From positions 2,199 to 66,198 of the forward strand of contig JBDRCZ010000051.1 of the NCBI GenBank assembly GCA_043821285.1: DNA of 64,000 nt. The letters are read 5' to 3'. Positions 27,708 to 59,223 of this stretch are shown piece by piece. This DNA comes from Candidatus Omnitrophota bacterium. Lineage in GTDB: Bacteria > Omnitrophota > Gorgyraeia > B26-G9 > JBDRCZ01. Numbering within the stretch: the stretch's first letter is position 1; every line of letters begins with the position of its first letter. Below the pieces are notes generated by a model. That model made no database searches. It was not told the origin of the DNA and was given only the letters and a program-made list of their open reading frames with translations. The position numbers were made by a program, and so were the translations under genes.

Positions 27708-27733
27708 CACGGAAAATGCAAGCATTTTCCACG
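27708..27733 (+). repeat. 23-nt palindrome family CGGAAAATGC-N3-GCATTTTCCG
   Basis: Copies at 27708, 40172, 45619 and 55116. Each follows a terminator-like hairpin. Confidence 0.7.
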
Positions 27734-35577: not shown

Positions 35578-37167
35578 ATGCAAAAGTATAAATGGATTAT
35601 AGCTTATATACTCATTATCTTATTTATGAACAGTTTGAGTTTTAGCCAGACGGTTACTCCTTTGAAAGATGACCTGGATGAAGATGTTTCCCTGCCAGCG
35701 GTATCTGCTAATAAAATTTCCCTGGACTTTAAAGATGCAAATATTATTGATGTGTTGAGATTGCTTTCTCAGGAAGCAGGTATTAGTTTTGTTCCGACTA
35801 AGGATGTCGAAGATAAGGAAGTAACATTGATTATGGAAAACGTTACGGTTGAAGAAGCAATTGCCGCGCTGATGAGTGCCAATGACCTGATTTTTGAAAA
35901 GACAAAGGGTAACATAAATATTATTAGAAAAAGCGGTGCCCCGGAAATAAAAACTGAAACTAAGATATATACCTTGAATTATGTCCGGATTGGAGAGGCA
36001 GCCAGTGGGAGTAAAGACAAGCGGGTCGGGGATGAGAAAGGTGGAATATTTGAAATAATGAAGAAAATACTGACGTCTTACGGTTCAGTGGTGGCAGATG
36101 CCAGAACGAACAGTATAATTATTACGGATATATCTACGCGTTTCGAACTAATTGAAGAAGTCCTGGCGCGTTTGGATACGCCAACACCACAGGTGGTAAT
36201 CGAGGTGGAGGTGATTGAGACAACGGCCGGATTAGTTGATGACTTAGGTTTTAAATGGGGTGGGGTGACCGGAACGATATTATCGGCAACTCCAGCAATA
36301 AGGCCATCACCATTTCCTTTTAAAAAGGTTGGGGTCCCGACTAGTTATGGAGTGGAATATAAGGAAAACACCTTTACTTTTGGCACATTGTCCGCATCAG
36401 CATTTGAGACGACTTTAAATATGATTAGACAGGATACCTCTACAAGATTTCTTGCACGGCCAAAAATTATGGTATTGAATAATGAATCTGCAGAGATTAA
36501 GATTGTTGCGGATCAGGCTATTGGCCGGGAGATAACCACGGATCCTGATTCTAATCTTGTAACCATTACATATGAACGGGCAGAGATTGGCACAACTTTA
36601 AAAGTTACGCCGCTGGTAAATAATATAAATATGATTACGTTAAAGATCGAACCGGAAGTGAGCAGGGCAGTTGATTCACCAGTTTTTTCTGAGGTTATTG
36701 ATAAACATTCCCGTAAGGCAGATACCGTGGTTATGTTAAAAGACGGAGAGACGGTTGTCTTGGGAGGATTTATTACGACTGAAGATAGCGGAGCAGAGCG
36801 GAATTTACCAGGACTCTCCAGCCTGCCATTTATCGGCGCATTGTTTAAACATAATAGAAAATCCAGAACAGACAAAGAACTGCTTGTATTTTTAACTCCC
36901 CATGTTGTAAAACAGTTAGAAACTGTAGTCCTGCCGGTTGAGCAGAGGGAAGAAATAGCCGAACAGCCGCAGCGAGAGGAGGTTACAAAAAAGACATCTA
37001 AAGAAATAAAAGTGATAAAAGAATCAGAGCGGATAGAAGGACAAAGCGCCTCAAAGCCAAAGGCTCTTCAGCCGAGTGCTAAACCAATAGCATTACAACC
37101 GCAGGAAAAATTTTCCTCGAAAAAAGATACCCCAAAAGTTGAAAATACTTTTATAAGAGAACAATGA
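35578..37167 (+). CDS. pilQ: Secretin PilQ/GspD family
   Basis: Signal peptide and C-terminal secretin domain (VVLGGFITTEDSGAERNLPGLSSLPFIGALFKH...LLVFLTPHVV). Extra charged C-terminal tail. Confidence 0.85.
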   Translation: MQKYKWIIAYILIILFMNSLSFSQTVTPLKDDLDEDVSLPAVSANKISLDFKDANIIDVLRLLSQEAGISFVPTKDVEDKEVTLIMENVTVEEAIAALMSANDLIFEKTKGNINIIRKSGAPEIKTETKIYTLNYVRIGEAASGSKDKRVGDEKGGIFEIMKKILTSYGSVVADARTNSIIITDISTRFELIEEVLARLDTPTPQVVIEVEVIETTAGLVDDLGFKWGGVTGTILSATPAIRPSPFPFKKVGVPTSYGVEYKENTFTFGTLSASAFETTLNMIRQDTSTRFLARPKIMVLNNESAEIKIVADQAIGREITTDPDSNLVTITYERAEIGTTLKVTPLVNNINMITLKIEPEVSRAVDSPVFSEVIDKHSRKADTVVMLKDGETVVLGGFITTEDSGAERNLPGLSSLPFIGALFKHNRKSRTDKELLVFLTPHVVKQLETVVLPVEQREEIAEQPQREEVTKKTSKEIKVIKESERIEGQSASKPKALQPSAKPIALQPQEKFSSKKDTPKVENTFIREQ

Positions 37168-38867
37168 TAAAATCAAACCTAAAATTAGGTGAAATATTAA
37201 TAAAACAGAGATTAATTACCAAGGAACAGCTTCAAGCGGCATTAGAGGTTCAAAAGAGAGAAAAATGCCGCTTAGGCGAAGCATTGGTAAAGACCGGGGT
37301 TGTCAGTGAAGAAAACATAGCTATGGCGCTGTCTAAGCAGTTAGGAATTATTTATGCTTCTTTAGAAAAGGGGCTGCTGCGGCCGAGTTTATTTCAGGAT
37401 TTAGATAAAATAATTCCCGAAGAATTTGCCCGGCTAAATAAGGTCATGCCGCTTTCCCATCATCTTAACTCTTTAACCATTGCCTGTGTAGATCCGTTGG
37501 ATTTAATCCTTATTGATAATATTACAAAGATGACTGGTTGTGATATTCATGTTGCGGTCAGTACGCCAGGCGAGATAACCGAGGCAATTGACCGTTTTTA
37601 CGGCAAGCAGGATTTATTAAAAAAGGCAATCGACGGCACATATTCGATTGAGGATGACACGGAAAGAAGTGAGACCGAGAAGAGAGATTTAGATAATTTA
37701 ATTGCCCAGGCAGAAGAAGCGCCGGTAATAAAACTTGTGGATTTAATTCTTCGACAGGCAATTGATGACCGGGCCAGTGATGTTCATGTAGAAAAGTTTG
37801 AAACGCGAGTGAGCATCCGCTACCGAATAGACGGCATATTATATGAAATTGCTCCCCCGGCACATCAATTATACCTGCCGATTGTTTCCCGGATTAAAAT
37901 AATTTCAAAAATGGATATTGCTGAACGCCGGCTGCCGCAAGACGGCGGGTTGAGTATTAAAGCCGGCAGCCGGCACCTGGATCTACGGGCATCGAGTATC
38001 CCTACGGTTTATGGCGAAAAGATCGTGCTTCGAATTTTGGATAAATCATCTTTGCCTACGAGTTTAGACATTTTAGGATTTTTACCGCATGAGCTTGAAA
38101 TCTTAAGGCAGGAAGTTGTCAAGCCCCATGGTATGGTTTTAACTACCGGTCCGACAGGTAGTGGAAAAACAACAACGTTATATGCGATTTTAAATACCAT
38201 AAAAACTCCGAAAAAGAATATTTTGACAGTTGAAGATCCGGTGGAATACAAGTTAGATGGGGTAAATCAGGTGTTGGTAAGACCGGAAATCGGTTTGAAA
38301 TTTTCAAGTGTTCTACGTGCATTTTTACGCCAGGATCCGGATATTATATTAGTTGGTGAAGTCAGAGATTTGGAGACGGTACAAATATGTTTGCGTGCCG
38401 CTTTAACCGGACATCTGGTGCTTAGCACACTACATACTAATGATGCGGCGGGAGCAGTTGTACGTTTGATGGATATGGGGGTTGAGCCGTTTTTGATCGG
38501 TTCCTGTATAAATCTAATCATGGCACAGCGTCTGGTGCGGAGAATTTGTCCTAAATGTAGAGTCGAATGTAAGGCACCGTTTGATGTTCCGCATTACGGC
38601 AAAATAACTCAGCCGATATTCGAGGCCAGGGGATGCAATGAGTGCCGTTTTATCGGATATAAGGGAAGAGTGGGGATTTATGAGTTATTGAGGTTAACAC
38701 CACGGATACGGAGTTTGATTCACCGCCGGGCAACAACAGATGAAATAAGAAAAGCCGCAATTGATGAAGGAATGACAACATTGTTCCAGGCGGGGATGGA
38801 AAAGGTTATCAGCGGATTGACCACGCTGGAAGAGATAATGTCAGTTACCACGATAGAGGAGGATTAA
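37164..38867 (+). CDS. pilB: Type IV pilus / T2SS assembly ATPase PilB/GspE
   Basis: N-terminal MshEN-like domain, Walker A GPTGSGKTT, and tetracysteine motif CPKC...CNEC. Confidence 0.9.
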   Translation: MIKSNLKLGEILIKQRLITKEQLQAALEVQKREKCRLGEALVKTGVVSEENIAMALSKQLGIIYASLEKGLLRPSLFQDLDKIIPEEFARLNKVMPLSHHLNSLTIACVDPLDLILIDNITKMTGCDIHVAVSTPGEITEAIDRFYGKQDLLKKAIDGTYSIEDDTERSETEKRDLDNLIAQAEEAPVIKLVDLILRQAIDDRASDVHVEKFETRVSIRYRIDGILYEIAPPAHQLYLPIVSRIKIISKMDIAERRLPQDGGLSIKAGSRHLDLRASSIPTVYGEKIVLRILDKSSLPTSLDILGFLPHELEILRQEVVKPHGMVLTTGPTGSGKTTTLYAILNTIKTPKKNILTVEDPVEYKLDGVNQVLVRPEIGLKFSSVLRAFLRQDPDIILVGEVRDLETVQICLRAALTGHLVLSTLHTNDAAGAVVRLMDMGVEPFLIGSCINLIMAQRLVRRICPKCRVECKAPFDVPHYGKITQPIFEARGCNECRFIGYKGRVGIYELLRLTPRIRSLIHRRATTDEIRKAAIDEGMTTLFQAGMEKVISGLTTLEEIMSVTTIEED

Positions 38868-38873
38868 TCTTTA

Positions 38874-40127
38874 ATGCCCGATTTTTTATATCGTGCACGG
38901 GATAGCAGTGGAAACATTGTACAAGGGACACTTAGTGCGCAAAGCCGCGATGATTTAGTTGATATCTTACAGCGCCGTAATTTATTAGTTACCTATATTG
39001 AAGCGCTTACCTCGCCGAAATCAACCGTACAGAAAAAAGAATATATTCGCCAGCGATCAAAAAGCAAATTTCGGATTTCTCTATTTCAACGGGTCAAATT
39101 GGATGATTTGACCCTGTTTGCCCGTCAGCTCTCAACCCTGCTTAATGCGGGTGTGCCCCTGCTGCGCAGTTTGACCATTTTAACAAAACAGGTAGAAAGT
39201 CTGCCCCTGCAGGAGGCAATTTCCGGGGTAAGAAAAGATATCCAGTCTGGTTTTACGCTGCGGGATTCCTTGGCGAAATATCCGCAGATTTTTACTAAGT
39301 TTTGGGTTAATTTAGTAGGTACGGGGGAGGCGAGCGGACAACTGCCTTTGGTGCTTGGGCAGATTGCAGTCTATTTTGAGAATGAAGGCGCTTTACGCCG
39401 TAAAATTATCTCGGCATTGATATATCCGGCAATTCTGATGACTGTGGCGGTGGTTGCAATATTTATCTTTATTATGAAAATTGTTCCTATTTTTGCAGCA
39501 ATGTTTGAGTCTTTTGATGTGGAATTACCTCAAGCAACAAAATTTCTGATAGTTTTGAGCAAGCTATTAGGGGGGTATAATTCTCTTTGGGTTATTGCGT
39601 CTTTAATCATAGGTTTTTTTATTTTAAAAAAGGTTATTTCGACCAAGCACGGCCGGTTTATTTTTGATAGCATTAGATTAAAACTTCCGATTTTTGGGAA
39701 TTTTTTCAGAAATATTGCCATTGCGACTTTTACGCGCGGGTTAGGGACAATGATCTCCAGCGGGGTACCGATATTATATGCCTTAGAGATTGTTACCAGC
39801 ACCGTAGGCAATAGCGTCATCGAGCGTTCGCTGGATGTAGTTAAGGAGAGTGTCCGCGAGGGCAAAACTGTAGCAGAACCATTAGAAGCAAATACGATAT
39901 TTCCGCCGCTGGTAGTACAGATGGTGAATGTTGGCGAAGAGACCGGAAATCTTGCGGATATGTTGATTAAGATTGCGGAGTTTTATGAAGAACGGGTAAC
40001 GGTAGTAACCGAACGGATGGCTTCACTGATTGAACCGATAATGCTGGTATTTATGGGGATCATTATTGGCGCGATGGTTGTTTCGATGTTTTTACCAATA
40101 TTTAAATTAGCTACGTCGGTAAGATAA
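38874..40127 (+). CDS. pilC: Type IV pilus platform protein PilC/GspF
   Basis: Two GspF repeats and three TM segments. Confidence 0.85.
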   Translation: MPDFLYRARDSSGNIVQGTLSAQSRDDLVDILQRRNLLVTYIEALTSPKSTVQKKEYIRQRSKSKFRISLFQRVKLDDLTLFARQLSTLLNAGVPLLRSLTILTKQVESLPLQEAISGVRKDIQSGFTLRDSLAKYPQIFTKFWVNLVGTGEASGQLPLVLGQIAVYFENEGALRRKIISALIYPAILMTVAVVAIFIFIMKIVPIFAAMFESFDVELPQATKFLIVLSKLLGGYNSLWVIASLIIGFFILKKVISTKHGRFIFDSIRLKLPIFGNFFRNIAIATFTRGLGTMISSGVPILYALEIVTSTVGNSVIERSLDVVKESVREGKTVAEPLEANTIFPPLVVQMVNVGEETGNLADMLIKIAEFYEERVTVVTERMASLIEPIMLVFMGIIIGAMVVSMFLPIFKLATSVR

Positions 40128-40130
40128 GAA

Positions 40131-40165
40131 ACAAATCTCTCCCTCCGCTTGCGGAGGGGGAGATT
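40131..40165 (+). terminator. Rho-independent terminator, member of a conserved repeat family
   Basis: aaatctctccctccgcttgcggagggggagattt. Paralogs at 27672, 32714, 42095 (opposite orientation) and 45585 share the cgcttgcg-type loop region. Confidence 0.65.
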
Positions 40166-40320
40166 TATACACGGAAAATGCAGCACATTTTCCGGAGGTT
40201 ATGCCTTTTTCACAAAGGGGAAAGAATAAGATTGCACCATAACTGTTTTGTTCTTAAGCCGTTCTGTGTCCGCGGTGGTTAAGTATTTGACAAAATGCTG
40301 GATTAATACAGGGGGATGAT

Positions 40321-40710
40321 ATGAGAAAGACAGCATTTACCTTAATTGAGGTAATGATTACAATCATAATCGTCGCGATTTTAGCGACACTTGCTGTGCC
40401 AACATATATGAAGATGGCAGAGCGGGCAAAAAGACGTGAGGCAATTGCTACTTTAAACACAATATTTGCCGCGGAGAGGGTCTATTGTACAGAGAGAAGG
40501 ACGTATATTGATGCTGCTGCTGCCGCTGAGTGGGCGGCATTAAATATGGATGATCCTAATGCCAACCCGCAAAGTAATTTTGGCTATACAATTAGTGGTG
40601 CAACAACAACTACTTTTAACGCTACGGCGACGAGAAACTCCGGTACTTATTCGGGTAATACAGTAACTATTGACCAAACAGGTAACCTCGGAGGGACATT
40701 TAACCCCTAA
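40321..40710 (+). CDS. pilA: Type IV pilin (prepilin with class III signal)
   Basis: MRKTAFTLIEVMITIIIVAILATLAVP, i.e. the G-F-T-L-I-E prepilin cleavage/methylation motif. Confidence 0.85.
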   Translation: MRKTAFTLIEVMITIIIVAILATLAVPTYMKMAERAKRREAIATLNTIFAAERVYCTERRTYIDAAAAAEWAALNMDDPNANPQSNFGYTISGATTTTFNATATRNSGTYSGNTVTIDQTGNLGGTFNP

Positions 40711-45583: not shown

Positions 45584-45879
45584 AATTCTCCGCAGCAAAC
45601 TGCGGAGAATTTTATAATCGGAAAATGCTGTGCATTTTCCGGAAATTTGAATAACGCAGGAAAAGCACCATTGGATTTAGCAATTATGTGTTTTGAATAC
45701 TACAACGAAACATTGTATCAAAGAAAGGAAACGATAGATAAATAAATCAACCAAAGGGAAAGTTTGAACACGAAAGGTTTTCAAATGACAAGCTGAACGA
45801 GCGAATAACATCTAAGTATTAATAAATTACTCGTCCGGTACCCCAGATCTGGTTGATTATAGTTCGTTTAGCTTATACA

Positions 45880-47522: not shown

Positions 47523-50500
47523 TCAGTCACCGCTTATCTCTATAATATACGCTGCCCGTGGATGGTTTTTGTTACGCTGGAGGATTTTTTTTGCGTATGC
47601 TCTGGCTTTTGCCTTGTTCCCGCAATTTAACTGAGTAACAGCAATATCGGCAAGAAATTTCTCATAGTTAATTCCTTGAGCCTTTGCCGCATTTTTGGTC
47701 GTAATTAATTTCTCCGCCTGATTAAAGAAATTTAAGGCATTTTTATCGTCATTTATGCTCAAATAAATTTTTCCTAAAAAATAATAAAACCTTGCCTTTT
47801 TATCCAAAGATAAATCAACGCACGTTTTTATATTTTCTACGGTTTCCGTGAACACTTCCGGTAAAAGAAAAGACTGCAGGGTATGATACCTATTCATCGC
47901 TAAAGCGGCATATTGCTCTATGTGTTCAATTTTTTTGTCAGTAAAAATTAATTTTTTTAATATCCGGATAGATGTCTCCAATCCTTCAATGTTATATGAA
48001 CAAAAAGCCAGCGCAGCTTGTTCGTCTTCGGGGTATTTTGTATGCCATTTTTTAACCAAAGAGATAAGGAAATGATTATTATATGCGGGATTTTCATGGA
48101 GATAGGTATAGAGATTTTTCAGATTGTTATAATTGATTTGCGCGGATCCAAGGTAATTTTTAATTAAAAGCACGCTGTTTTCTAAAGGCAATTTTCGCTC
48201 ATCGAACATTTTAATGAATTTCTCGGATACGGATATTTTTGTATACAGGCCCAAAGGCGCTTGATAATCCAAGGATGGGAAGTAATCGCTATTTACCGCG
48301 GCAGCATTTTTGGGAATTAATTTAGCGATACTTTTACTGGAGGACAATTGCAGGCTGAGCAAGGTAAATATGTCATTTACCTTTATTCTAAATAAGTCAT
48401 GGGTTATATTTTCCTCGGCAAGTCTTTTTTCCATTTCAATAAAATCAGGGGTAAATTCTTCCCGTGAGCCGATGATAAAGATATCATAAATCCCGGTCGT
48501 CCACAAAGAGACGTGCGGGAAGACGGAGAAAAATGTTTGCAGGATCAGAGCAAATGTTTCATTATTCATCTCATAAGTCTGGACCCACTGGAGCATTATT
48601 CCGCGTTTATTGAGATGATTGTAACATTCCTGATAAAACTCTTGTGAAAACAACGCCCCGATTCCGCTAATCCACGGATTAGAAGGTTCGCTGATTATTA
48701 CATCGTATTTCTTATCAGTTCGTAATAAAAAGGTTTTTGCATCTTCCAGATGGAGATTGAGACGCGCGTCTCTCAAGGCATTATAATTATAAGAGGAAAA
48801 ACATTTGTTTGCTTCAACGACGGTGCGGGAGATTTCAATAAGGTCAAGGTTTTTAATCGGATGAAGTAGCGCCGAACCACAAGTAACCCCGCTGCCTAAC
48901 CCTACGACCAGGACGTCTTTTGCCGCGGGTTTTAATAATAAAGGAAGGTGTGCGCTAAGTATTTGTGTGGGCATATCAGCACCGGTAGATGCATCCGGTT
49001 TTCCATTTATAAATAATATACGTTCCTCACGGGAGGCGCTTACAACATGCATAACCGCGACGCTGGCATTTAACCCATCCTGATAAAAGAGGATATTGTT
49101 TTCTTTTATTTCCTGGGAAAAATCGTTAAAGGTTTCCTTAATATTACGGGGGTACCTAAAGGCTTGGGTGCTAAAATAGGCCATATTCCAGTCAGGCACA
49201 AGTATTTTATAACTGGTGAAAATACAAACTACTAAGAAGGAACAGATTAGTTTTTGCTTTAATTTAAAACTATTGTCTAAAAATAGCACAATCATACCCA
49301 GCAGCAGATTTATTATTATTCCAAGCTCTAACGTATATTTTAAGCCAATAAGCGGAATGATAAATAACCCGGTGGCAAAGGCGCCGGCAATATTGCCGCT
49401 GGTATTAGCCGCAAAGACACTGCCAATATTTTTTCCGAGGGTCTGCAGTTTAGACGATGCAATTTTACTCACCAAGGGCAGGGTCATGCCCATAAACATG
49501 GTCGGGATAAACATTACGGTAAATGAGAGTAAAAATTTAAGTCCGGCATACAACGGAAAGGTTTGTGGCGTTCTTACGAAAATTGCCGCGAGTTTCGAAA
49601 ATATAAACGGGAGTTTTTCATAAAAAGGCAGCGTACAAATCAGGGAAATCCCGATTAAAATTTCGCAGATACCAAATACGAAGAAGGTAAATTTTTCTTT
49701 CGGCATAAGACGAGAGATTAAAAATGAACCGAGCGTAATGCCCGAGATAAATGCCGCAAGCATCAGTGAAAATGAATAAGTAGAAGAGCCGAGGATAAGC
49801 GAAAGTAATCTTATCCAGACAATTTCATAAAGCATTGCCGCAAACCCGGAGACAAATATTCCGGTTTTGGCAATATTTACTGTTTTGTCAGTGAAAACAT
49901 ATTGGTACACGGACGATAGTTCTTGCGGCGGAGTTTTTTCAAAAGGGCGTGGTTTTTTAGAGATATTTCGATAGAGCAGGTTTAAAATAATCGCGGCACC
50001 GCCAACAAAAAAATTAATAAACACGGCGATAAATATAGAAAACTCAAGGCCGAAAGAATAAATCAGATAAAACCCGGCCCAAATTGTTCCGGCTACCGCA
50101 CCGAAACTATTTAGATAATATAGCCGGGCGACTATTTTCCCGCGCACCGAGAGTGCTTTAATCATAAATCTGCTCAAAATCGGCAGTGTCCCCCCCATCA
50201 GAATTGTCGGCGGCAGCATGATCAAGGCGCTAATAATAAATTTAGTAATAACAATTAACACCGGAAATTGAGATAAATTTTTAGCAGCCGCTAAATAGAT
50301 ATTTCGTGAAAAGACAAAAAGATTTGGCGTGAAGACACAAAATAAGGCAATGCCGATTTCTACCCAGGCAAAAAAGGAAAGCCGGTTTTTAACCCGGTCG
50401 GCAAACTTACCTAATAAAAAGCTGCCCAAGGTAAGCCCGGTCATAAACGTAGCCAGTACTAAAGTATGGGCATAGGCAGTATTGCCGAGTATTAATGTGA

Positions 50501-50591
50501 GATATTTAGCCCAGACAATCTCATAGATAAGGCCGGCCACCCCGGAAAGAAAAAAACAGAGATATAGTACGAAATTGTATTTTAATCGCAT
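47523..50591 (-). CDS. Fused MFS-type membrane domain / spermidine-synthase-like methyltransferase / C-terminal TPR protein
   Basis: About 500 aa of polytopic TM region. A PABS-like fold (VLVVGLGSGVT...DVIISEPSNPW...) follows. TPR-like helices run to the C-terminus. Confidence 0.75.
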   Translation of the reverse strand: MRLKYNFVLYLCFFLSGVAGLIYEIVWAKYLTLILGNTAYAHTLVLATFMTGLTLGSFLLGKFADRVKNRLSFFAWVEIGIALFCVFTPNLFVFSRNIYLAAAKNLSQFPVLIVITKFIISALIMLPPTILMGGTLPILSRFMIKALSVRGKIVARLYYLNSFGAVAGTIWAGFYLIYSFGLEFSIFIAVFINFFVGGAAIILNLLYRNISKKPRPFEKTPPQELSSVYQYVFTDKTVNIAKTGIFVSGFAAMLYEIVWIRLLSLILGSSTYSFSLMLAAFISGITLGSFLISRLMPKEKFTFFVFGICEILIGISLICTLPFYEKLPFIFSKLAAIFVRTPQTFPLYAGLKFLLSFTVMFIPTMFMGMTLPLVSKIASSKLQTLGKNIGSVFAANTSGNIAGAFATGLFIIPLIGLKYTLELGIIINLLLGMIVLFLDNSFKLKQKLICSFLVVCIFTSYKILVPDWNMAYFSTQAFRYPRNIKETFNDFSQEIKENNILFYQDGLNASVAVMHVVSASREERILFINGKPDASTGADMPTQILSAHLPLLLKPAAKDVLVVGLGSGVTCGSALLHPIKNLDLIEISRTVVEANKCFSSYNYNALRDARLNLHLEDAKTFLLRTDKKYDVIISEPSNPWISGIGALFSQEFYQECYNHLNKRGIMLQWVQTYEMNNETFALILQTFFSVFPHVSLWTTGIYDIFIIGSREEFTPDFIEMEKRLAEENITHDLFRIKVNDIFTLLSLQLSSSKSIAKLIPKNAAAVNSDYFPSLDYQAPLGLYTKISVSEKFIKMFDERKLPLENSVLLIKNYLGSAQINYNNLKNLYTYLHENPAYNNHFLISLVKKWHTKYPEDEQAALAFCSYNIEGLETSIRILKKLIFTDKKIEHIEQYAALAMNRYHTLQSFLLPEVFTETVENIKTCVDLSLDKKARFYYFLGKIYLSINDDKNALNFFNQAEKLITTKNAAKAQGINYEKFLADIAVTQLNCGNKAKARAYAKKILQRNKNHPRAAYIIEISGD

Positions 50592-50921
50592 CGGAATTTG
50601 CCTTTTTATTAGTTTATTTTTTCTTTATTCTAACAGAATTAATTATTTTGTGAAAGTAAAATGTGTGTAGATGCTAAGAGCCATAGTTTGTGCCTTTATT
50701 TTTTCAATCTCCCGCAAAGTTGCCGGAATGCCAAGCTGCTCATCACATCCGCCCAGGCGGATGACCGGAAAATGATTGCATTTTCCGTGTATGAAACAAT
50801 CTCGCAGCAAGCTGCAGGGTGGTTTCATTCGGCAGACAGGTATATTTTTCATTGTGTATAATTGACTTGCCATTTATCGCAACTTTGGTTAACATATTAA
50901 AGAAAGGCGCACAGAGGCAAA

Positions 50922-54148: not shown

Positions 54149-54825
54149 TTTTTATACCCCACCTTTATATCTTTATATAATGTCTCAGCCGTAGATAATG
54201 TATTATCGGTATCTGTCATTAAGGCAATGGCGCCGACATAATCAGAAGGAAATGTGCCAAAGGCTTTGTTATAGTCTTCATAGATATTATGTTCTTCAAA
54301 GATCCATTTGCCGATTTTTTCTCTACCGGATTGTGCGACGATTAATTTAATATTATGGAAATAAGGACTGGATAGTATTGTTCCTTCGGGTAGGCTTTCA
54401 TCCCAGATATATTCGATGCTCTTTGTATGGGTAAAAATCCAACTGGGAAATATAACGTATACCCTGCCGGCATAATCATCTTTTTCGATCCAACCCTTCT
54501 TTGTACCGTCAATTGTTTCTTTTTCAGGAAATTTTAATACCTTCCATTGCCAGCTGATCATCGGGAGTTCTCGGGGATGGAACTTTATTTTATAAAATAA
54601 ACCGGAACAGGACTCGGTGCTTTTGGCTAAAAGATAACCGCCTTCCTTGATCGGTTCGACCAGGTACAACACTTTGTTTTTAAATACCTTTTCTTCCCAT
54701 TCCCCTAATGCATCCTTTTTATTAAACGGGAACAATTTGGGCAGGTCAAAGCTGTAGGTATAATGAATAAATAAGGTTGATAATATTAACAATATCAAAA
54801 GATAAATAAATCTTCTTCTACGCAT
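54145..54825 (-). CDS. Hypothetical secreted/membrane-anchored protein (possibly DUF3047-like)
   Basis: N-terminal signal/anchor. Trp-rich conserved segments (W.EK.F...Y..V.., ISWQWKV). Confidence 0.4.
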   Translation of the reverse strand: MRRRRFIYLLILLILSTLFIHYTYSFDLPKLFPFNKKDALGEWEEKVFKNKVLYLVEPIKEGGYLLAKSTESCSGLFYKIKFHPRELPMISWQWKVLKFPEKETIDGTKKGWIEKDDYAGRVYVIFPSWIFTHTKSIEYIWDESLPEGTILSSPYFHNIKLIVAQSGREKIGKWIFEEHNIYEDYNKAFGTFPSDYVGAIALMTDTDNTLSTAETLYKDIKVGYKK

Positions 54826-54967
54826 GCTTTTATTTTAATTCAAATAAAGAAAATAGTCAAATATTACTTAGCTTTTTAATAAAAATCTTGAAAAAATCAT
54901 GGGGTTTTATTATAATATTTATTATAAGGGCATTGATATTTTGGCCGGCTCATGAGGAGGTGGAAAT

Positions 54968-55036
54968 ATGGGGTGTGGGACTTGCAGACCAAAGAAGAAA
55001 GCAAAGAAAAAAGCTGCTAAAAAGAAAAAGAGATAA
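54968..55036 (+). CDS. Small 22-aa poly-Lys peptide with a CxxC motif (MGCGTCRPKKKAKKKAAKKKKR), not in the ORF track
   Basis: A perfect GGAGGTGGAAAT-ATG RBS, an in-frame TGA just upstream, and a TAA stop. Lies immediately upstream of the ABC transporter genes. Confidence 0.4.
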   Translation: MGCGTCRPKKKAKKKAAKKKKR

Positions 55037-55180
55037 CATAAACCATTAACTTAATTCTCTATGGTCTTGTCGCAGATCCGCGGTGGCGGAGCTGAAACTA
55101 ATTTCGCTTCACGGTCGGAAAATGCAGTGCATTTTCCGAACATGAAGATACCCTGTCTCAAGAGACGGGGGAGATGCATT

Positions 55181-55936
55181 ATGGAAAATATAATCCTCGT
55201 AGAAAATTTGCGGGTTGTTTATAAACCGAGTGGGGGAATGACTAAATCAGCGCTAAAAGATGTGAGCTTTAGGGTGAGGCCGGGAGAAATATTTGGTTTT
55301 TTAGGACCGAATGGAGCCGGGAAAACTACCGCAATTAAGGTAATCCTGGGATTAGTCAGACCGGCCCAGGGCCGGGTAGAGGTTTTAGGCCGGCCCTGCG
55401 GAGATATTAAAAGTCATTATCAATTAGGGTATATGCCGGAAATTGCTTATTATTATCAATATCTTACCCCGCAAGAACTGCTGTTCATGTATGGCCGATT
55501 GCTGAAATTAAGTAAAAACACAATAAAAGAACGTACGGATTATCTGCTGGATATTGTGGGGCTTATTGACAGCCGGAATATCCTGATGAAAACCTTTTCT
55601 AAAGGCATGATGCAAAAGGTAAGTTTAGCACAGGCATTGCTAAATGAACCGGAACTGTTAGTTCTTGATGAACCGACTTCCGGCTTAGACCCAATTGCCC
55701 GGATGAAGGTACGGGACATTATCCGGGATTTAAAATCAAAAAACAAAACGATATTTTTTTCATCGCATGAGCTCTCAGAGGTAGAAACCGTAAGTGATAA
55801 CATTGGAATTTTACATGAGGGAAATTTGTTAAAAATTGGTAAACTCAATGAAGTGCTTAATGAACGCGGACAGCATGAGAGCCTGGAAAAATATTTTTTA
55901 AGAATAATTCAGAAAGAGATATGTTTAAATCTTTAA
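55181..55936 (+). CDS. ABC transporter ATP-binding protein (ABC-2 type)
   Basis: Walker A GPNGAGKTT, ABC signature LSKGMMQKVSLAQ, Walker B LLVLDEPTSGLD. ATG at 55181 with a GGGGGAG RBS. Confidence 0.85.
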   Translation: MENIILVENLRVVYKPSGGMTKSALKDVSFRVRPGEIFGFLGPNGAGKTTAIKVILGLVRPAQGRVEVLGRPCGDIKSHYQLGYMPEIAYYYQYLTPQELLFMYGRLLKLSKNTIKERTDYLLDIVGLIDSRNILMKTFSKGMMQKVSLAQALLNEPELLVLDEPTSGLDPIARMKVRDIIRDLKSKNKTIFFSSHELSEVETVSDNIGILHEGNLLKIGKLNEVLNERGQHESLEKYFLRIIQKEICLNL

Positions 55937-56691
55937 TTATTGCCCAAAATGTCCTGCGGGAGTCATTACGCAAAAAAGATTTTTATGTCTTTTTGATATT
56001 TTTGCTTATTTTGGTGGTTTTTTTGGCAAATATCAATATGTTTAATGTTTCCGGTATTTCGCGTTATCTTAAAGAAATGTCTTTGGAAATGGCTTATCTT
56101 TTTAGTCTGATTATTGTTATCGTCTTTAGTGCTAAACTTATGCCGCAGGAACTTGGTGCAAAGACAATATATCCGCTGCTGGCAAAACCGGTGAGCCGCA
56201 GAGATGTGCTCGCGGGTAAATTTCTTGGGGCATGTTTTATTGCCGGTGTTTGTTTTAGTATCTTTTATTCTCTGATTGGTATTGCTGCGGCACTTAAAGG
56301 TGAAGGATTTTCGCTGGATTTATTTTTTCAGGGATATATTTTATGGAGCCTGCAGCTAATGCTTATGGCGGCAATGGTAATCTTTTTTTCAATGCACTTG
56401 ACCGTTTCGGCAAATATAACCCTTAGTTTTTGTATTTATTTTTTGATGAACTGGTTTGGCCCGCATATTCGAGAAATATCTTTTATGTTAAATAAGACCA
56501 GCGGCATTGTGCTGTCGCTATTTTATTATCTCCTGCCGCATTTTGAATTTTATGATCTACGTACCAGAATGGTACATATGTGGACTCCTTTACCGGCATT
56601 TATTATGGGCTACATTATGCTTTATACACTTATCTATGTACTATTATTAATTTCCGCAGCGATTTATTCCTTTAAGAAAAAAATATTATGA
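55921..56691 (+). CDS. ABC-2 family permease
   Basis: Six predicted TM segments. Overlaps the ATPase gene. Confidence 0.7.
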   Translation: MFKSLIIAQNVLRESLRKKDFYVFLIFLLILVVFLANINMFNVSGISRYLKEMSLEMAYLFSLIIVIVFSAKLMPQELGAKTIYPLLAKPVSRRDVLAGKFLGACFIAGVCFSIFYSLIGIAAALKGEGFSLDLFFQGYILWSLQLMLMAAMVIFFSMHLTVSANITLSFCIYFLMNWFGPHIREISFMLNKTSGIVLSLFYYLLPHFEFYDLRTRMVHMWTPLPAFIMGYIMLYTLIYVLLLISAAIYSFKKKIL

Positions 56692-57506
56692 TTCTCAAAG
56701 GGAAAACTATCCTTTTTTTACCGCTGTTAATCCTGATTCTCTCGATAAACCTTGATACGTATTTTTTCGACGATAATTTCAAAAAAGGCATCAGAGAAAA
56801 AGATATCTTATTTAAGGCAATCGGCAGTTTTCGGGAGTCAATCGGCGCGATGGTCTGGCTGAAAACTGATGAATATTTTCATGGGGGTATTCCGCGGCCA
56901 AAAGAAGAAAAATGTTTAGAACAAGGGATGGACGCGGAGCATGAGCATGAACATAAAGAAAGACATAGCACAGATGTGGTCAGGTTAGCCGGAGATGATT
57001 TTATCGCGTTGATTAACCATTATGTATCAATTGCCGAACATAAACACTTAAGCAGCCAGCAGGAAAAAGAAATTGTTCCTTGGTTTATGCTGGCAGCAAA
57101 AATTGACCCGCATAATATTCAGGCATATGTTGTGGGCGGTTACTGGCTTGGGGAGAGACTGGGACGTCCGGACGAAGCATTACAGTTTTTGGAGGAAGGA
57201 AGGATGAATAATCCTGACGAGTGGCAGATTTATGAGCAATTTGGGGACATTTACTATCGTGCAAAGCAGGATTATTTAAAAGCGGCAAATTATTTTAAGA
57301 TGTGTTATCGCCTGATGACGGGTGAAAACTCAACCGTTCATGACCGAAAGAGAATATTGACCTTTTTAGCGGCAAGCTACGAGAAGATAGAGGAGTATTC
57401 TTTAGCCATAGAATATTTTAAATTGCTTAAGCAGTTAGAGAGCACCGCCGGGGATATTGACAAACGCATTAAACATCTGGAAGAACTGAACAGAAAGTTA
57501 AATTGA
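56688..57506 (+). CDS. Secreted TPR-like protein with a His/Glu-rich segment (DAEHEHEHKERH)
   Basis: Signal peptide. TPR-like C-terminus. Overlaps the permease stop. Confidence 0.5.
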   Translation: MILKGKTILFLPLLILILSINLDTYFFDDNFKKGIREKDILFKAIGSFRESIGAMVWLKTDEYFHGGIPRPKEEKCLEQGMDAEHEHEHKERHSTDVVRLAGDDFIALINHYVSIAEHKHLSSQQEKEIVPWFMLAAKIDPHNIQAYVVGGYWLGERLGRPDEALQFLEEGRMNNPDEWQIYEQFGDIYYRAKQDYLKAANYFKMCYRLMTGENSTVHDRKRILTFLAASYEKIEEYSLAIEYFKLLKQLESTAGDIDKRIKHLEELNRKLN

Positions 57507-58440
57507 TGAAAAGTTTAAAAACAATTATTCCTCATTATTTTTTAGCTACGGATTTACACGGATGGAACACGGATTTTTAATAATTAATTCATTTTTTGAC
57601 CCGTTTACCCTATTTTATACCCTCCCCGGATTTAATCAAAAGATTTTTTCTAAAAAAGATTGGGATAGGTTTAACATTGCAACGCTAATAGGGCAAGCGG
57701 TATAAGGTATTTAAGGATTCATTTTATTTTTAACAACAAATATCACCAATTACACGAATATGGTAAGTATCTTTTATTTGTGATGTTTGTGTGATTTGTT
57801 GTTTAAAAAAAAATTATTTTTTATGCTCTAATGTAAAGCTCAGCAATACGTTGTAAATTTTTTTATTCTCACACAGAGCCACAGCGCTCACAGAGTTTTT
57901 TTTAATTTCTGACCAGCTGGTACAGACTTTTCTGCGTATTGATTATTGTTTTAAATATTATCGGAAAGATATTTAAATTTTTTCTCATCCTTGGGATATT
58001 CGCAGCCTTGATTGTTTGGTTGATGATTAAATTTAATCTTATCAGTTTTTGAACCTAAGACATAAGACAGAAATTTTTGATTTTTATTAATCCCCCGCCA
58101 AGCCACAAAGCTTACAAGAAAAATTTATGTAGATAATTTTTTGTTCCCCGCCCAAAAAAATATTTTTGTTTTGAATTTAGTTTATGTTTAGAGTAAAATA
58201 TATGCTGTATATCGTATGTCGTGAGGCTTGTTGTTAAGCGGGTACCGTTTGTCGGTACAGAGAGTGGATAGAAATATACAACGGGACTTTGTCTCAAGGT
58301 CTGTGATCATCCCTGCCTGTGGCAGGCAGGAGTATCTTTCAATCTGCGATCATGAGGAAAAAGAAGAGAAAGAGTTGTTTCCGCTTGTAAAGAAATATGA
58401 GGTTGAGTTAGAATAATATGGCGGCCAGTAGTGATTAGAT

Positions 58441-59223
58441 ATGATAGATACGTATTGCGTGAAAAAAATATTAATTTTTTTAGTGATTGTTTTAACCGCG
58501 CAGGTTAGTTATGCCGAAGAAACTGGGGAAAAGACATGGAATAGAATTCTCGGGATCGGATGGTTAGCGTATAATGGCCCGTATAAAGATAAAGACGCTG
58601 ACCTGGCACCGGTTTTGATTACCTTTTGGCAGCAAGACCGGGTTTTTATCCGTGGGTCAAAAGCCGGGTATGTCGTGGGAAAACTAAAAGACTTAAATCA
58701 AACAGAGATTGACCTGTATATTGAACCGCGCTTTATGGGATATTCTGCCGAAGATAGTGCTGTGTTTCAAGGGATGTCTGATAGAAAATATTCAGCGGAT
58801 ATTGGGGTGCAGTTTAAAGGGAAGCTGCCGGATTTAAAAGATGTATCCGTTAATGTTTCCCTGTCCACGGATTTACTGGCTAAGCATGAAGGTCAGGAGA
58901 TAAAACTTGAGTTGTTAAAATCCTTTGACCATGGCTTTTATTTTTTAAGACCAGGGATCGGGGTGGAGTGGCAAAGCAAGGATATGGTGGATTATTATTA
59001 TGGGGTGTGCGGAGAAGAGGTGACGACAATTAGGTTTGAATATTCGCCGAATGATGCGATAAATTTTTATACGGGCATAGATGGTTATCTGGGCTTGTCC
59101 GAGAACTGGCTTTTAGTAGGAAATGTCTGTGTTTATTTTTTGCATAAGGCAATTAAGAATAGCCCGATTGTGGATAGTGCATATGCCCTGCGCGGGATTG
59201 TTGGGGTTAGTAGAAAATTTTGA
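58441..59223 (+). CDS. MipA/OmpV-family outer membrane protein
   Basis: Signal peptide and an alternating beta-strand pattern. Family-like segments (GIGWLAYNGPYKDKDAD, LYIEPRF, GYSAEDS). Confidence 0.55.
   Translation: MIDTYCVKKILIFLVIVLTAQVSYAEETGEKTWNRILGIGWLAYNGPYKDKDADLAPVLITFWQQDRVFIRGSKAGYVVGKLKDLNQTEIDLYIEPRFMGYSAEDSAVFQGMSDRKYSADIGVQFKGKLPDLKDVSVNVSLSTDLLAKHEGQEIKLELLKSFDHGFYFLRPGIGVEWQSKDMVDYYYGVCGEEVTTIRFEYSPNDAINFYTGIDGYLGLSENWLLVGNVCVYFLHKAIKNSPIVDSAYALRGIVGVSRKF

Follow-up and report, generated by a model that had tools for sequence, protein, structure and literature searches.

A CxxC–polylysine microprotein family of Omnitrophota and Nitrospirota with recurrent oxygen-defence neighbours and a member ahead of an ABC-2 transporter operon

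The defence of strict anaerobes against oxygen and reactive oxygen species (O2/ROS) is thought to be well catalogued, with superoxide reductase (SOR), rubrerythrin (Rbr), flavodiiron protein (FDP), rubredoxin and their reductases as its components. The CxxC(G) knuckle is the ligand motif of rubredoxin and desulforedoxin, and the H-C-x-x-P-C hook of nickel superoxide dismutase (NiSOD) and the M-x-C-x-x-C motif of HMA domains are N-terminal metal hooks. Here we describe a peptide of 22 amino acids (aa), MGCGTCRPKKKAKKKAAKKKKR, with a CxxC head and a polylysine tail, encoded in a 64,000-nucleotide stretch (the window) of a Candidatus Omnitrophota bacterium genome (assembly GCA_043821285.1, contig JBDRCZ010000051.1, positions 2,199 to 66,198). 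Relatives of this peptide recur beside O2/ROS-defence genes in other genomes. Our best explanation, to which we assign a probability of about 0.5, is that the family acts in oxidative-stress defence and that the window copy is a dispersed member lying incidentally before an ABC-2 transporter operon.

The peptide shares parts with several described systems. Like thioredoxin and protein disulfide isomerase (PDI), it carries a C-G-x-C motif, in which Gly4 is nearly invariant across the family, and genes for thioredoxin reductase (TrxR)-like proteins, glutaredoxin and Tpx are recurrent neighbours; unlike these proteins, it has no thioredoxin fold, and disulfide redox cycling is putative, by analogy. 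As in the NiSOD and HMA hooks, the Cys pair would lie at the mature N-terminus, position 2 being restricted to residues that permit removal of the initiator Met. However, mature NiSOD starts with H-C-x-x-P-C-G-x-Y and comes with its own body and a maturation protease, whereas the peptide lacks the His1 and the body, and its spacing is CxxC rather than CxxxC. The start MGCGTC fits M-x-C-x-x-C literally, but the HMA domain is a ferredoxin-like fold of about 70 residues, and the 22-aa peptide shared only the 6-residue motif with it and gave no PF00403 match at E ≤ 10. The sequence x-P-K-K followed by low complexity rich in K, A, T and P recalls the H1-like (SPKK) polycations of the Hc1 and AlgP type and the Lys-rich tails of Dps, and the Dps/ferritin-like neighbours of the family are in line with the same DNA-protection logic as those tails. 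The H1-like polycations, however, are much longer and do not share the N-terminal Cys pair; binding of the peptide to DNA is likewise putative, by analogy.

In the window, the peptide begins (M)G-C-G-T-C-R-P, and 12 of its 22 residues are basic (10 Lys and 2 Arg), not 14 as counted in a first-pass annotation of the stretch. That annotation had correctly reported a single CxxC (CGTC) motif and a tiny open reading frame (ORF) with a strong ribosome-binding site (RBS) and an in-frame stop upstream: the ORF runs from ATG 54968 to TAA 55034–55036, behind the Shine-Dalgarno (SD) sequence AGGAGGTG and the stop TGA 54953–54955. The promoter-like site TTGAAA-17-TATAAT at 54888–54916 was the top match in the 4 kb scanned (54500–58500), where no further promoter-like site was found on the + strand before 57103. 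A DUF3047 gene lies upstream in divergent orientation. The peptide has no signal or leader sequence, and the MGCGxC pattern occurs once in the 64-kb window against 0.00 expected. The half-sites of an inverted repeat over the –10 box (TTATAAT-N4-ATTATAA, 54910–54927) are Fur/PerR-box-like with an unusual spacing. Such boxes were not enriched upstream of other family members, and a PerR/Fur-like box was dropped as evidence.

Relatives were collected with two pattern scans. The first covered one genome per GTDB species with the pattern M-G-C-G-x-C-x-x-K-K (at least 119 loci), and the second covered metagenomes with an SD followed by M-x-C-x-x-C-x-P-K-K, positions 2 and 4 being free (at least 120 loci). 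All figures from both scans hold among the matches listed and are lower bounds. Together the scans yielded at least 100 distinct peptides of 13–39 aa and two long variants of 74–79 aa, with the consensus M-[G/S/A]-C-G-x-C-[G/A]-P-K-K and a tail of K with A, T, S or P. About 40 of the genome-scan loci were Lys-rich ORFs of 13–32 aa that stopped directly after the K-run; of these short matches, at least 30 belonged to Omnitrophota or Nitrospirota/Thermodesulfovibrionia and two to Planctomycetes, and a few were in metagenome-assembled genomes (MAGs) labelled as archaeal. Thermodesulfovibrionia is a class with cultured members. In the metagenome scan, 113 of the 120 listed matches belonged to the family (92 short forms and 21 of a longer sister form) and 7 were noise. 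Among 86 listed metagenome members, position 2 was Gly in 58, Ser in 18, Ala and Pro in 3 each, Thr in 2, and Cys and Arg in 1 each; position 4 was Gly in 81, and position 7 was Gly in 46 and Ala in 18. Methionine aminopeptidase removes the initiator Met before G, S, A, P, T and C, and not before R. A eukaryote-style N-myristoyl or palmitoyl signal (MGC...) was rejected, since about 30% of members have S, A, P or T at position 2.

We propose to define the family by a length of 13–39 aa (rarely longer), at least one-third K/R, no acidic or hydrophobic core and an SD ahead of the start. The window peptide fits every position of M-[GSA]-C-G-x-C-x-[PT]-K-K within this SD-led size range, and its nearest relatives among the matches listed are L161, L159, L181, L170 and L072. 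A GGAG-type SD stood at the same position in 33 of 37 listed family loci obtained with the pattern that did not require it. Equal-length pairs differed mainly at the third codon position (for example 1, 2 and 10 changes at the three positions; another pair had 0, 0 and 3, all synonymous), and length changes were whole codons. An antisense hydrophobic ORF, considered as a type I toxin, was conserved neither in frame nor in start or SD. The third-position bias, the whole-codon length changes, the SD and the unconserved antisense ORF together identify the CxxC–polylysine peptides, at the level of sequence, as a real protein-coding microprotein family in Omnitrophota, Nitrospirota/Thermodesulfovibrionia and Planctomycetes. 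With more than 100 homologous loci, a conserved SD and coding-like substitutions, the same holds for 54968–55036, which is a true coding gene that has a promoter-like site of its own and a strong RBS. The suggestion of a translatable small gene overlooked by annotation is thus borne out, and the frame, whose lack of conservation in relatives had been named as a refutation, proved to be conserved. The ORF has only 22 codons, and AGGAGGT also precedes ORFs of 7 and 12 codons elsewhere in the window, as would be expected of a chance ORF in an A-rich intergenic region; however, over 100 homologous ORFs keep the start, SD, frame and stop while varying at third positions, and we consider a chance origin barely credible.

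The family is nearly absent from protein databases, and most members fall under the length limits of gene callers. No Pfam or NCBIfam model matched the short form, apart from a sub-threshold dsrm hit owed to its KKxAK composition. When the protein collection was searched with a profile that had a 46-aa relative as its first sequence, few members of at least 30 aa were returned, all unnamed or called 'hypothetical protein', and an exhaustive HMMER pass over 1.84 billion representatives found two family members and zero domain fusions. No published description of a CxxC–polylysine family was found, including in searches with literal sequence strings. With Rfam, the whole window gave one tRNA only, and no known riboswitch or leader in the spacer downstream of the peptide gene.

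For the neighbour analysis, the ORFs flanking 128 listed short-form loci were clustered and the clusters were named by Pfam. Rubrerythrin, 1Fe superoxide reductase (1Fe-SOR, PF01880), flavodiiron protein, hybrid-cluster protein (Hcp) and an Rrf2 regulator were recurrent, as were TrxR-like and FNR-like flavoproteins, PNPOx-like, rubrerythrin-like and ferritin-like proteins, glutaredoxin and a Tpx-PCD fusion. A stress gene lay within 2.5 kb at 77 of the 128 listed loci, corresponding to 62 of 100 distinct listed peptides, compared with 3 of 83 listed pattern hits outside the family, two of these three being probably relatives. At least six types of adjacency were seen: divergent Rbr, FDP→peptide, Hcp→peptide, peptide→SOR, TrxR→peptide→Rrf2 (at two genome loci, L016 and L116) and peptide→ferritin-like. 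In Nitrospirota, Rbr is divergent from peptide→RidA→PdxA→RdgB; FDP→peptide→PNPOx-like and Hcp→peptide→SOR also occurred. For 9 distinct listed peptides, 1Fe-SOR was the immediate downstream gene. Since the arrangements differ between lineages, the linkage appears to have been maintained rather than inherited as one synteny. Because stress genes recur as neighbours, we infer a role of the family in O2/ROS defence. As an observation apart, 11 listed family loci (for example L226, at +543..+873 from the peptide start; also L157, L159, L173 and L183) had a neighbouring gene for a membrane protein of about 109 aa that has no Pfam match and whose tail, MMCMMRAKMCEMMVSGMMGVKEGMM, is rich in Met and Cys; this protein could be a metal- or oxidant-related partner.

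A mechanism can be proposed for such a role. With position 2 nearly always G, S, A, P or T, the initiator Met would be removed, placing Cys 2 and 5 of the mature peptide near a free amino terminus. The head may then act as a redox-active dithiol, by analogy with the CGxC motif of thioredoxin and PDI and given the TrxR-like, glutaredoxin and Tpx neighbours. Alternatively, its two thiolates might form a site for Fe, Zn or Ni, perhaps together with the free amine or a second peptide, again by analogy. The polylysine tail, with a charge of +12, would lower the thiol pKa and could concentrate the peptide on polyanions (DNA, RNA or the acidic surfaces of proteins), allowing local protection or the hand-off of electrons or metal. 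In its most specific form, this would be a polycationic dithiol or metallopeptide that coats nucleic acids or docks on acidic enzymes and locally detoxifies or repairs oxidative damage in strict anaerobes, a proposal that we consider tentative and rather unlikely as it stands. Such a peptide might be viewed as an encoded counterpart of DNA-condensing aminothiol radioprotectors, or as a minimal N-terminal metal hook.

Several points weigh against a role in oxidative-stress defence. The link to stress genes is an argument from genomic association, and common descent inflates it in part; one synteny is common to all Nitrospirota loci. No stress gene lies within 2.5 kb for 38 of the 100 distinct listed peptides, among them those of an Omnitrophota clade in which a STAS+PilZ gene always follows. 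The window copy is itself neither in nor beside an O2/ROS cluster, and no gene for Rbr, SOR, FDP, Hcp, TrxR, Rrf2 or a ferritin-like protein was found in the 64 kb. The conservation of C3, C6 and K9-K10 (and of P8 in the second scan) is not independent, as these residues were fixed in the search patterns and thereby set membership. Expression, the existence of the peptide and metal binding are all predicted. A single CxxC is alone insufficient for a Cys4 site, and the resemblance of the sister form to both desulforedoxin and the ribosomal protein bL32, described below, does not reach significance.

The sister form carries the same head on a different body. It has 44–47 aa and six Cys, with the pattern MGCGSC[E/G]PKK.AKYVC..CGKEE.REVKEGEEVKSCCGQ.M, and is unannotated or called 'hypothetical'. 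Its body matches the desulforedoxin ligand pattern Y-x-C-x-x-C-G...C-C-G-x-x-M, and Pfam Desulfoferrod_N (PF06397) aligned over the whole domain below the cut-off (E 0.03). The AlphaFold (AF2) model had a mean predicted local distance difference test score of 82, with the head least confident. In Foldseek no hit was significant, and the tightest local fit was desulforedoxin 1dxg (33 columns at 33% identity, root-mean-square deviation 2.3 Å). The spacing of the first two Cys pairs is also that of the bL32 zinc ribbon, C-x2-C-x9-C-x2-C, which in bL32 follows a basic N-terminal segment (E ~0.02 against bL32 in the PDB), and Pfam Ribosomal_L32p scored 13.9–16.8 bits against a cut-off of 21.3 bits (E 0.008–0.06). 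The MGCGxCxPKK head thus behaves as a module that is joined to a polylysine tail in one form and to a small protein of predicted Fe(Cys)4 type in the other.

One alternative is that the short form is a minimal rubredoxin- or desulforedoxin-type Fe(Cys)4 carrier, in which two peptides share an iron and feed SOR, rubrerythrin or a flavodiiron protein. Rubredoxin shares the CxxCG knuckle and is found together with SOR, FDP, rubrerythrin and reductases in the operons that contain the peptides; like desulforedoxin and the desulfoferrodoxin N-domain (PF06397), the family consists of very small Cys-motif proteins in the ROS-defence clusters of anaerobes. The direct position upstream of 1Fe-SOR for the peptides counted above, and that of the desulforedoxin-like sister form directly upstream of SOR in L113, also speak for a carrier. 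Rubredoxin differs, however, in being an acidic protein of about 52 aa with two knuckles, and desulforedoxin in having the CC pair and a foldable body where the peptide has a polylysine tail. Whereas PF00301 and PF06397 proteins hold four Cys in one chain, the window peptide has two and gave no Pfam match at E ≤ 10. Gly follows the second Cys in only 46 of the 86 listed members, and two +12 tails would repel each other if not bound to a polyanion. Genuine 52-aa rubredoxin genes were present at 15 of the listed loci, so that no carrier is missing from these clusters. Because they co-occur with true rubredoxins, the peptides are an addition rather than a replacement, which makes a pure mini-rubredoxin substitute less likely, and we regard a carrier of this type as distinctly improbable.

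A second reading of the head is a single bL32-like zinc knuckle (CxxCG-xxK) in a small basic ribosome- or RNA-associated protein, with the tail on rRNA as in bS22, bTHX or bL36, which might be swapped in under stress. The family resembles bL32, and by size and charge also bS22, bTHX and bL36, in its CxxCG-xxK knuckle, very high isoelectric point, length of 20–60 aa and strong SD; the extreme basicity and tiny size of the window peptide, its perfect SD and the identical zinc-ribbon spacing of the sister form likewise favour this reading. Against it, bL32 stands in a ribosomal context and has a second knuckle, whereas the short form has one knuckle only and gave no significant match: Pfam (E ≤ 10, PF01783 included) and NCBIfam returned no ribosomal family for it, and the sister-form matches to bL32 were under the gathering thresholds. 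While bL32 is encoded once per genome, typically near plsX/fab or ribosomal genes, the peptides have stress-gene neighbours, and at least one MAG (JBFKMY01) carries two short-form copies (L037 and L071). No ribosomal gene was among the recurrent neighbours of the listed short-form loci. The fallback of the first-pass annotation, a tiny ribosome- or nucleic-acid-associated basic protein, thus found no specific support, O2/ROS genes recurring in place of ribosomal ones, and we regard it as unlikely.

The same annotation had described an ABC ATPase, an ABC-2 permease and a TPR/His-rich protein following the tiny ORF, which is accurate (55181–57506), and had seen in this order the layout of a peptide with an export/immunity cassette. 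Comparison with homologues placed the ATPase start at ATG 55181, leaving a spacer of 144 nt after the peptide gene. The TPR protein is 100% identical to ABH952_06020, and a search of 5.8 billion proteins gave only two relatives, each about 40% identical to it. Both are encoded on Omnitrophota contigs (L001 and L002) with the same ATPase-permease-TPR order, the identities to the window proteins being 55–57% for the ATPase, 43–47% for the permease and 40–41% for the TPR protein. The proposed check, conservation of the tiny ORF in synteny with the transporter, came out negative for both: on one contig the ATPase begins 14 nt after an FAD oxidase gene, leaving no room for a small ORF, and on the other the 220-nt region upstream of the ATPase holds no such ORF. 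Conversely, the permease or TPR protein of the window was found at none of the other 127 listed short-form loci. With the trio occurring without the peptide and the family without the permease and TPR protein, the export/immunity reading is unsupported, and the position of the peptide before the ABC-2 operon probably is incidental.

These data also bear on a secreted polycationic antimicrobial or cell-penetrating peptide that would be exported or neutralised by the ABC-2 transporter and the TPR protein. Polylysine peptides are membrane-active, and the genes are adjacent on the same strand in the window. Besides the separate conservation of trio and peptide, this reading is opposed by the lack of a leader, double-glycine motif, signal peptide or modification enzyme and by an ATPase without a peptidase domain; of the hallmarks of a bacteriocin or lantipeptide cassette, the window locus has neither a leader nor a C39 peptidase-ABC or LanFEG transporter nor co-conservation. 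We consider it highly improbable. In L001 (4478–4502) and L002 (4492–4511), as a side observation, the ATPase start has TAGTATAAT within about 10 nt upstream and no SD, which suggests predicted leaderless or very short-leader transcripts, unlike in the window.

The spacer before the ATPase yielded neither a sigma-70-like promoter nor a U-tract terminator, so that the peptide and the ABC operon may be co-transcribed in the window. A further reading is a cis-acting leader peptide (upstream ORF), in which ribosome stalling on the run of Lys codons, for example upon a drop in tRNA-Lys thiolation or Lys supply, would control the operon through spacer hairpins. The ORF is tiny, has a strong SD and ends 144 nt short of an operon for which no separate promoter was found, and the region 54925–55200 folds better than shuffled sequence (z = –3.35); these features are consistent with such control. 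However, across phyla it is the protein sequence of the head that is conserved, while the downstream genes vary, and the sister form joins this head to a folded domain; a hairpin with a T-run terminator lies within 90 nt after the stop at 54 of 114 distinct listed loci, so that many of the ORFs are self-contained transcription units or operon ends. The ABC trio of L001 and L002 has no leader ORF, and the main spacer hairpin is a dispersed repeat found at four other window sites without the peptide. Leader-peptide attenuators are tied to alternative RNA structures and to a single conserved operon downstream, and a leader or attenuator is therefore very unlikely here.

The hairpin in question is the palindrome CGGAAAATGC-N3-GCATTTTCCG that had been noticed in the spacer, and it is present at 55116–55138. 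The repeat, CGGAAAATGC-N2-3-GCATTTTCC(G), has five copies in the 64 kb (27710–27731, 40172–40194, 45619–45641, 50766–50787 and 55116–55138). Four lie 36–80 nt past a + strand stop codon and one in a divergent intergenic region; at least two (40172 and 45619) follow a GC-rich hairpin and T-rich stretch by a few bases. The repeat occurred only as inverted pairs, and single arms were not over-represented in the window; a DNA-uptake sequence was rejected on these grounds in favour of a repetitive extragenic palindromic (REP)-like element. No copy was present in 241 fetched loci. The palindrome thus looks like a genome-specific REP-like element or an operator and, being dispersed in the window, is uninformative about the peptide. 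The coordinates of the locus are collected in Table 1.

Table 1. Features of the peptide locus, the downstream operon and the sister form (window positions, unless a locus is named).
Feature	Position	Strand	Remarks
Sigma-70-type promoter-like site TTGAAA-17 nt-TATAAT, for peptide gene	54888..54916	+	11/12 matches
Perfect inverted repeat TTATAATA-TT-TATTATAA (= TTATAAT-N4-ATTATAA)	54910..54927	.	Overlaps –10 box; operator candidate, significance unproven
Shine-Dalgarno AGGAGGTG	54955..54962	+	GGAGG-to-ATG distance 7 nt
Microprotein gene, 22 aa, MGCGTCRPKKKAKKKAAKKKKR	54968..55036	+	CxxC head then polylysine tail; stop codon counted in; conserved family
Peptide form named for synthesis, GCGTCRPKKKAKKKAAKKKKR			
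Short GC hairpin TCCGC-GGTG-GCGGA	55077..55090	+	Site of terminator-like hairpin before other repeat copies
REP-like palindromic repeat	55107..55147	.	Core CGGAAAATGC-AGT-GCATTTTCCG at 55116–55138; one of five window copies
Hairpin CCCTGTCT-CAAG-AGACGGGG	55151..55170	+	Overlaps ATPase RBS (GGGGGAG)
ABC ATPase	55181–55936	+	Only ABC_tran/AAA_21 domains, no peptidase domain; GGGGGAG RBS
ABC-2 permease (ABC2_membrane_2)	55921–56691	+	
TPR protein	56688–57506	+	N-terminal hydrophobic segment, EHEHEHKERH stretch
Sister form	L105; L113 (~4966); members within L127–L234; proteins P0004–P0025		

Elsewhere in the window there is a type IV pilus block (37164–40710). Its ATPase is PilB-like and its T2SSF protein PilC-like; the pilin has an N-methylation motif and matches the ComP_DUS domain (E 1.5e-7), and its gene is separated from pilC by a copy of the palindromic repeat. 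A gene on the – strand (47523–50591) encodes a 1022-aa fusion of an MFS-like membrane region, a spermidine/spermine synthase domain and TPR repeats. Within the family, MAG JAQTNM01 carries one short form and one desulforedoxin-like form (L073 and L105). Nitrospirota members L031, L037, L060, P0009, P0010 and P0020 show an apparent internal duplication of the C-[GA]-P-K-K-T-K-K unit, with a third Cys at about position 17–19 kept in some and Ser in its place in others. The long variants L184 and L214 (74–79 aa) as well as L143 and L167 have the related heads MTCKTCAPKK or MPCG.CKPKK, followed by 39–79 aa of (KKAVKKVV)n-type repeats like those of H1/AlgP polycations.

For the window, the tempting interpretation as a peptide with its exporter is corrected. 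For the family, a tiny unannotated component of 16–32 aa recurs within O2/ROS clusters in at least three phyla, and it shows how genes of fewer than 30 codons evade annotation. If functional, it would be an unrecognised player in the pathway, for example by supplying a thiol or a metal as cofactor, by protecting nucleic acids or by partnering with the Rrf2 regulator. If the peptides indeed act as polycationic dithiols or metallopeptides, they would represent a new class of antioxidant microproteins, mostly below 30 codons and largely missed by gene callers.

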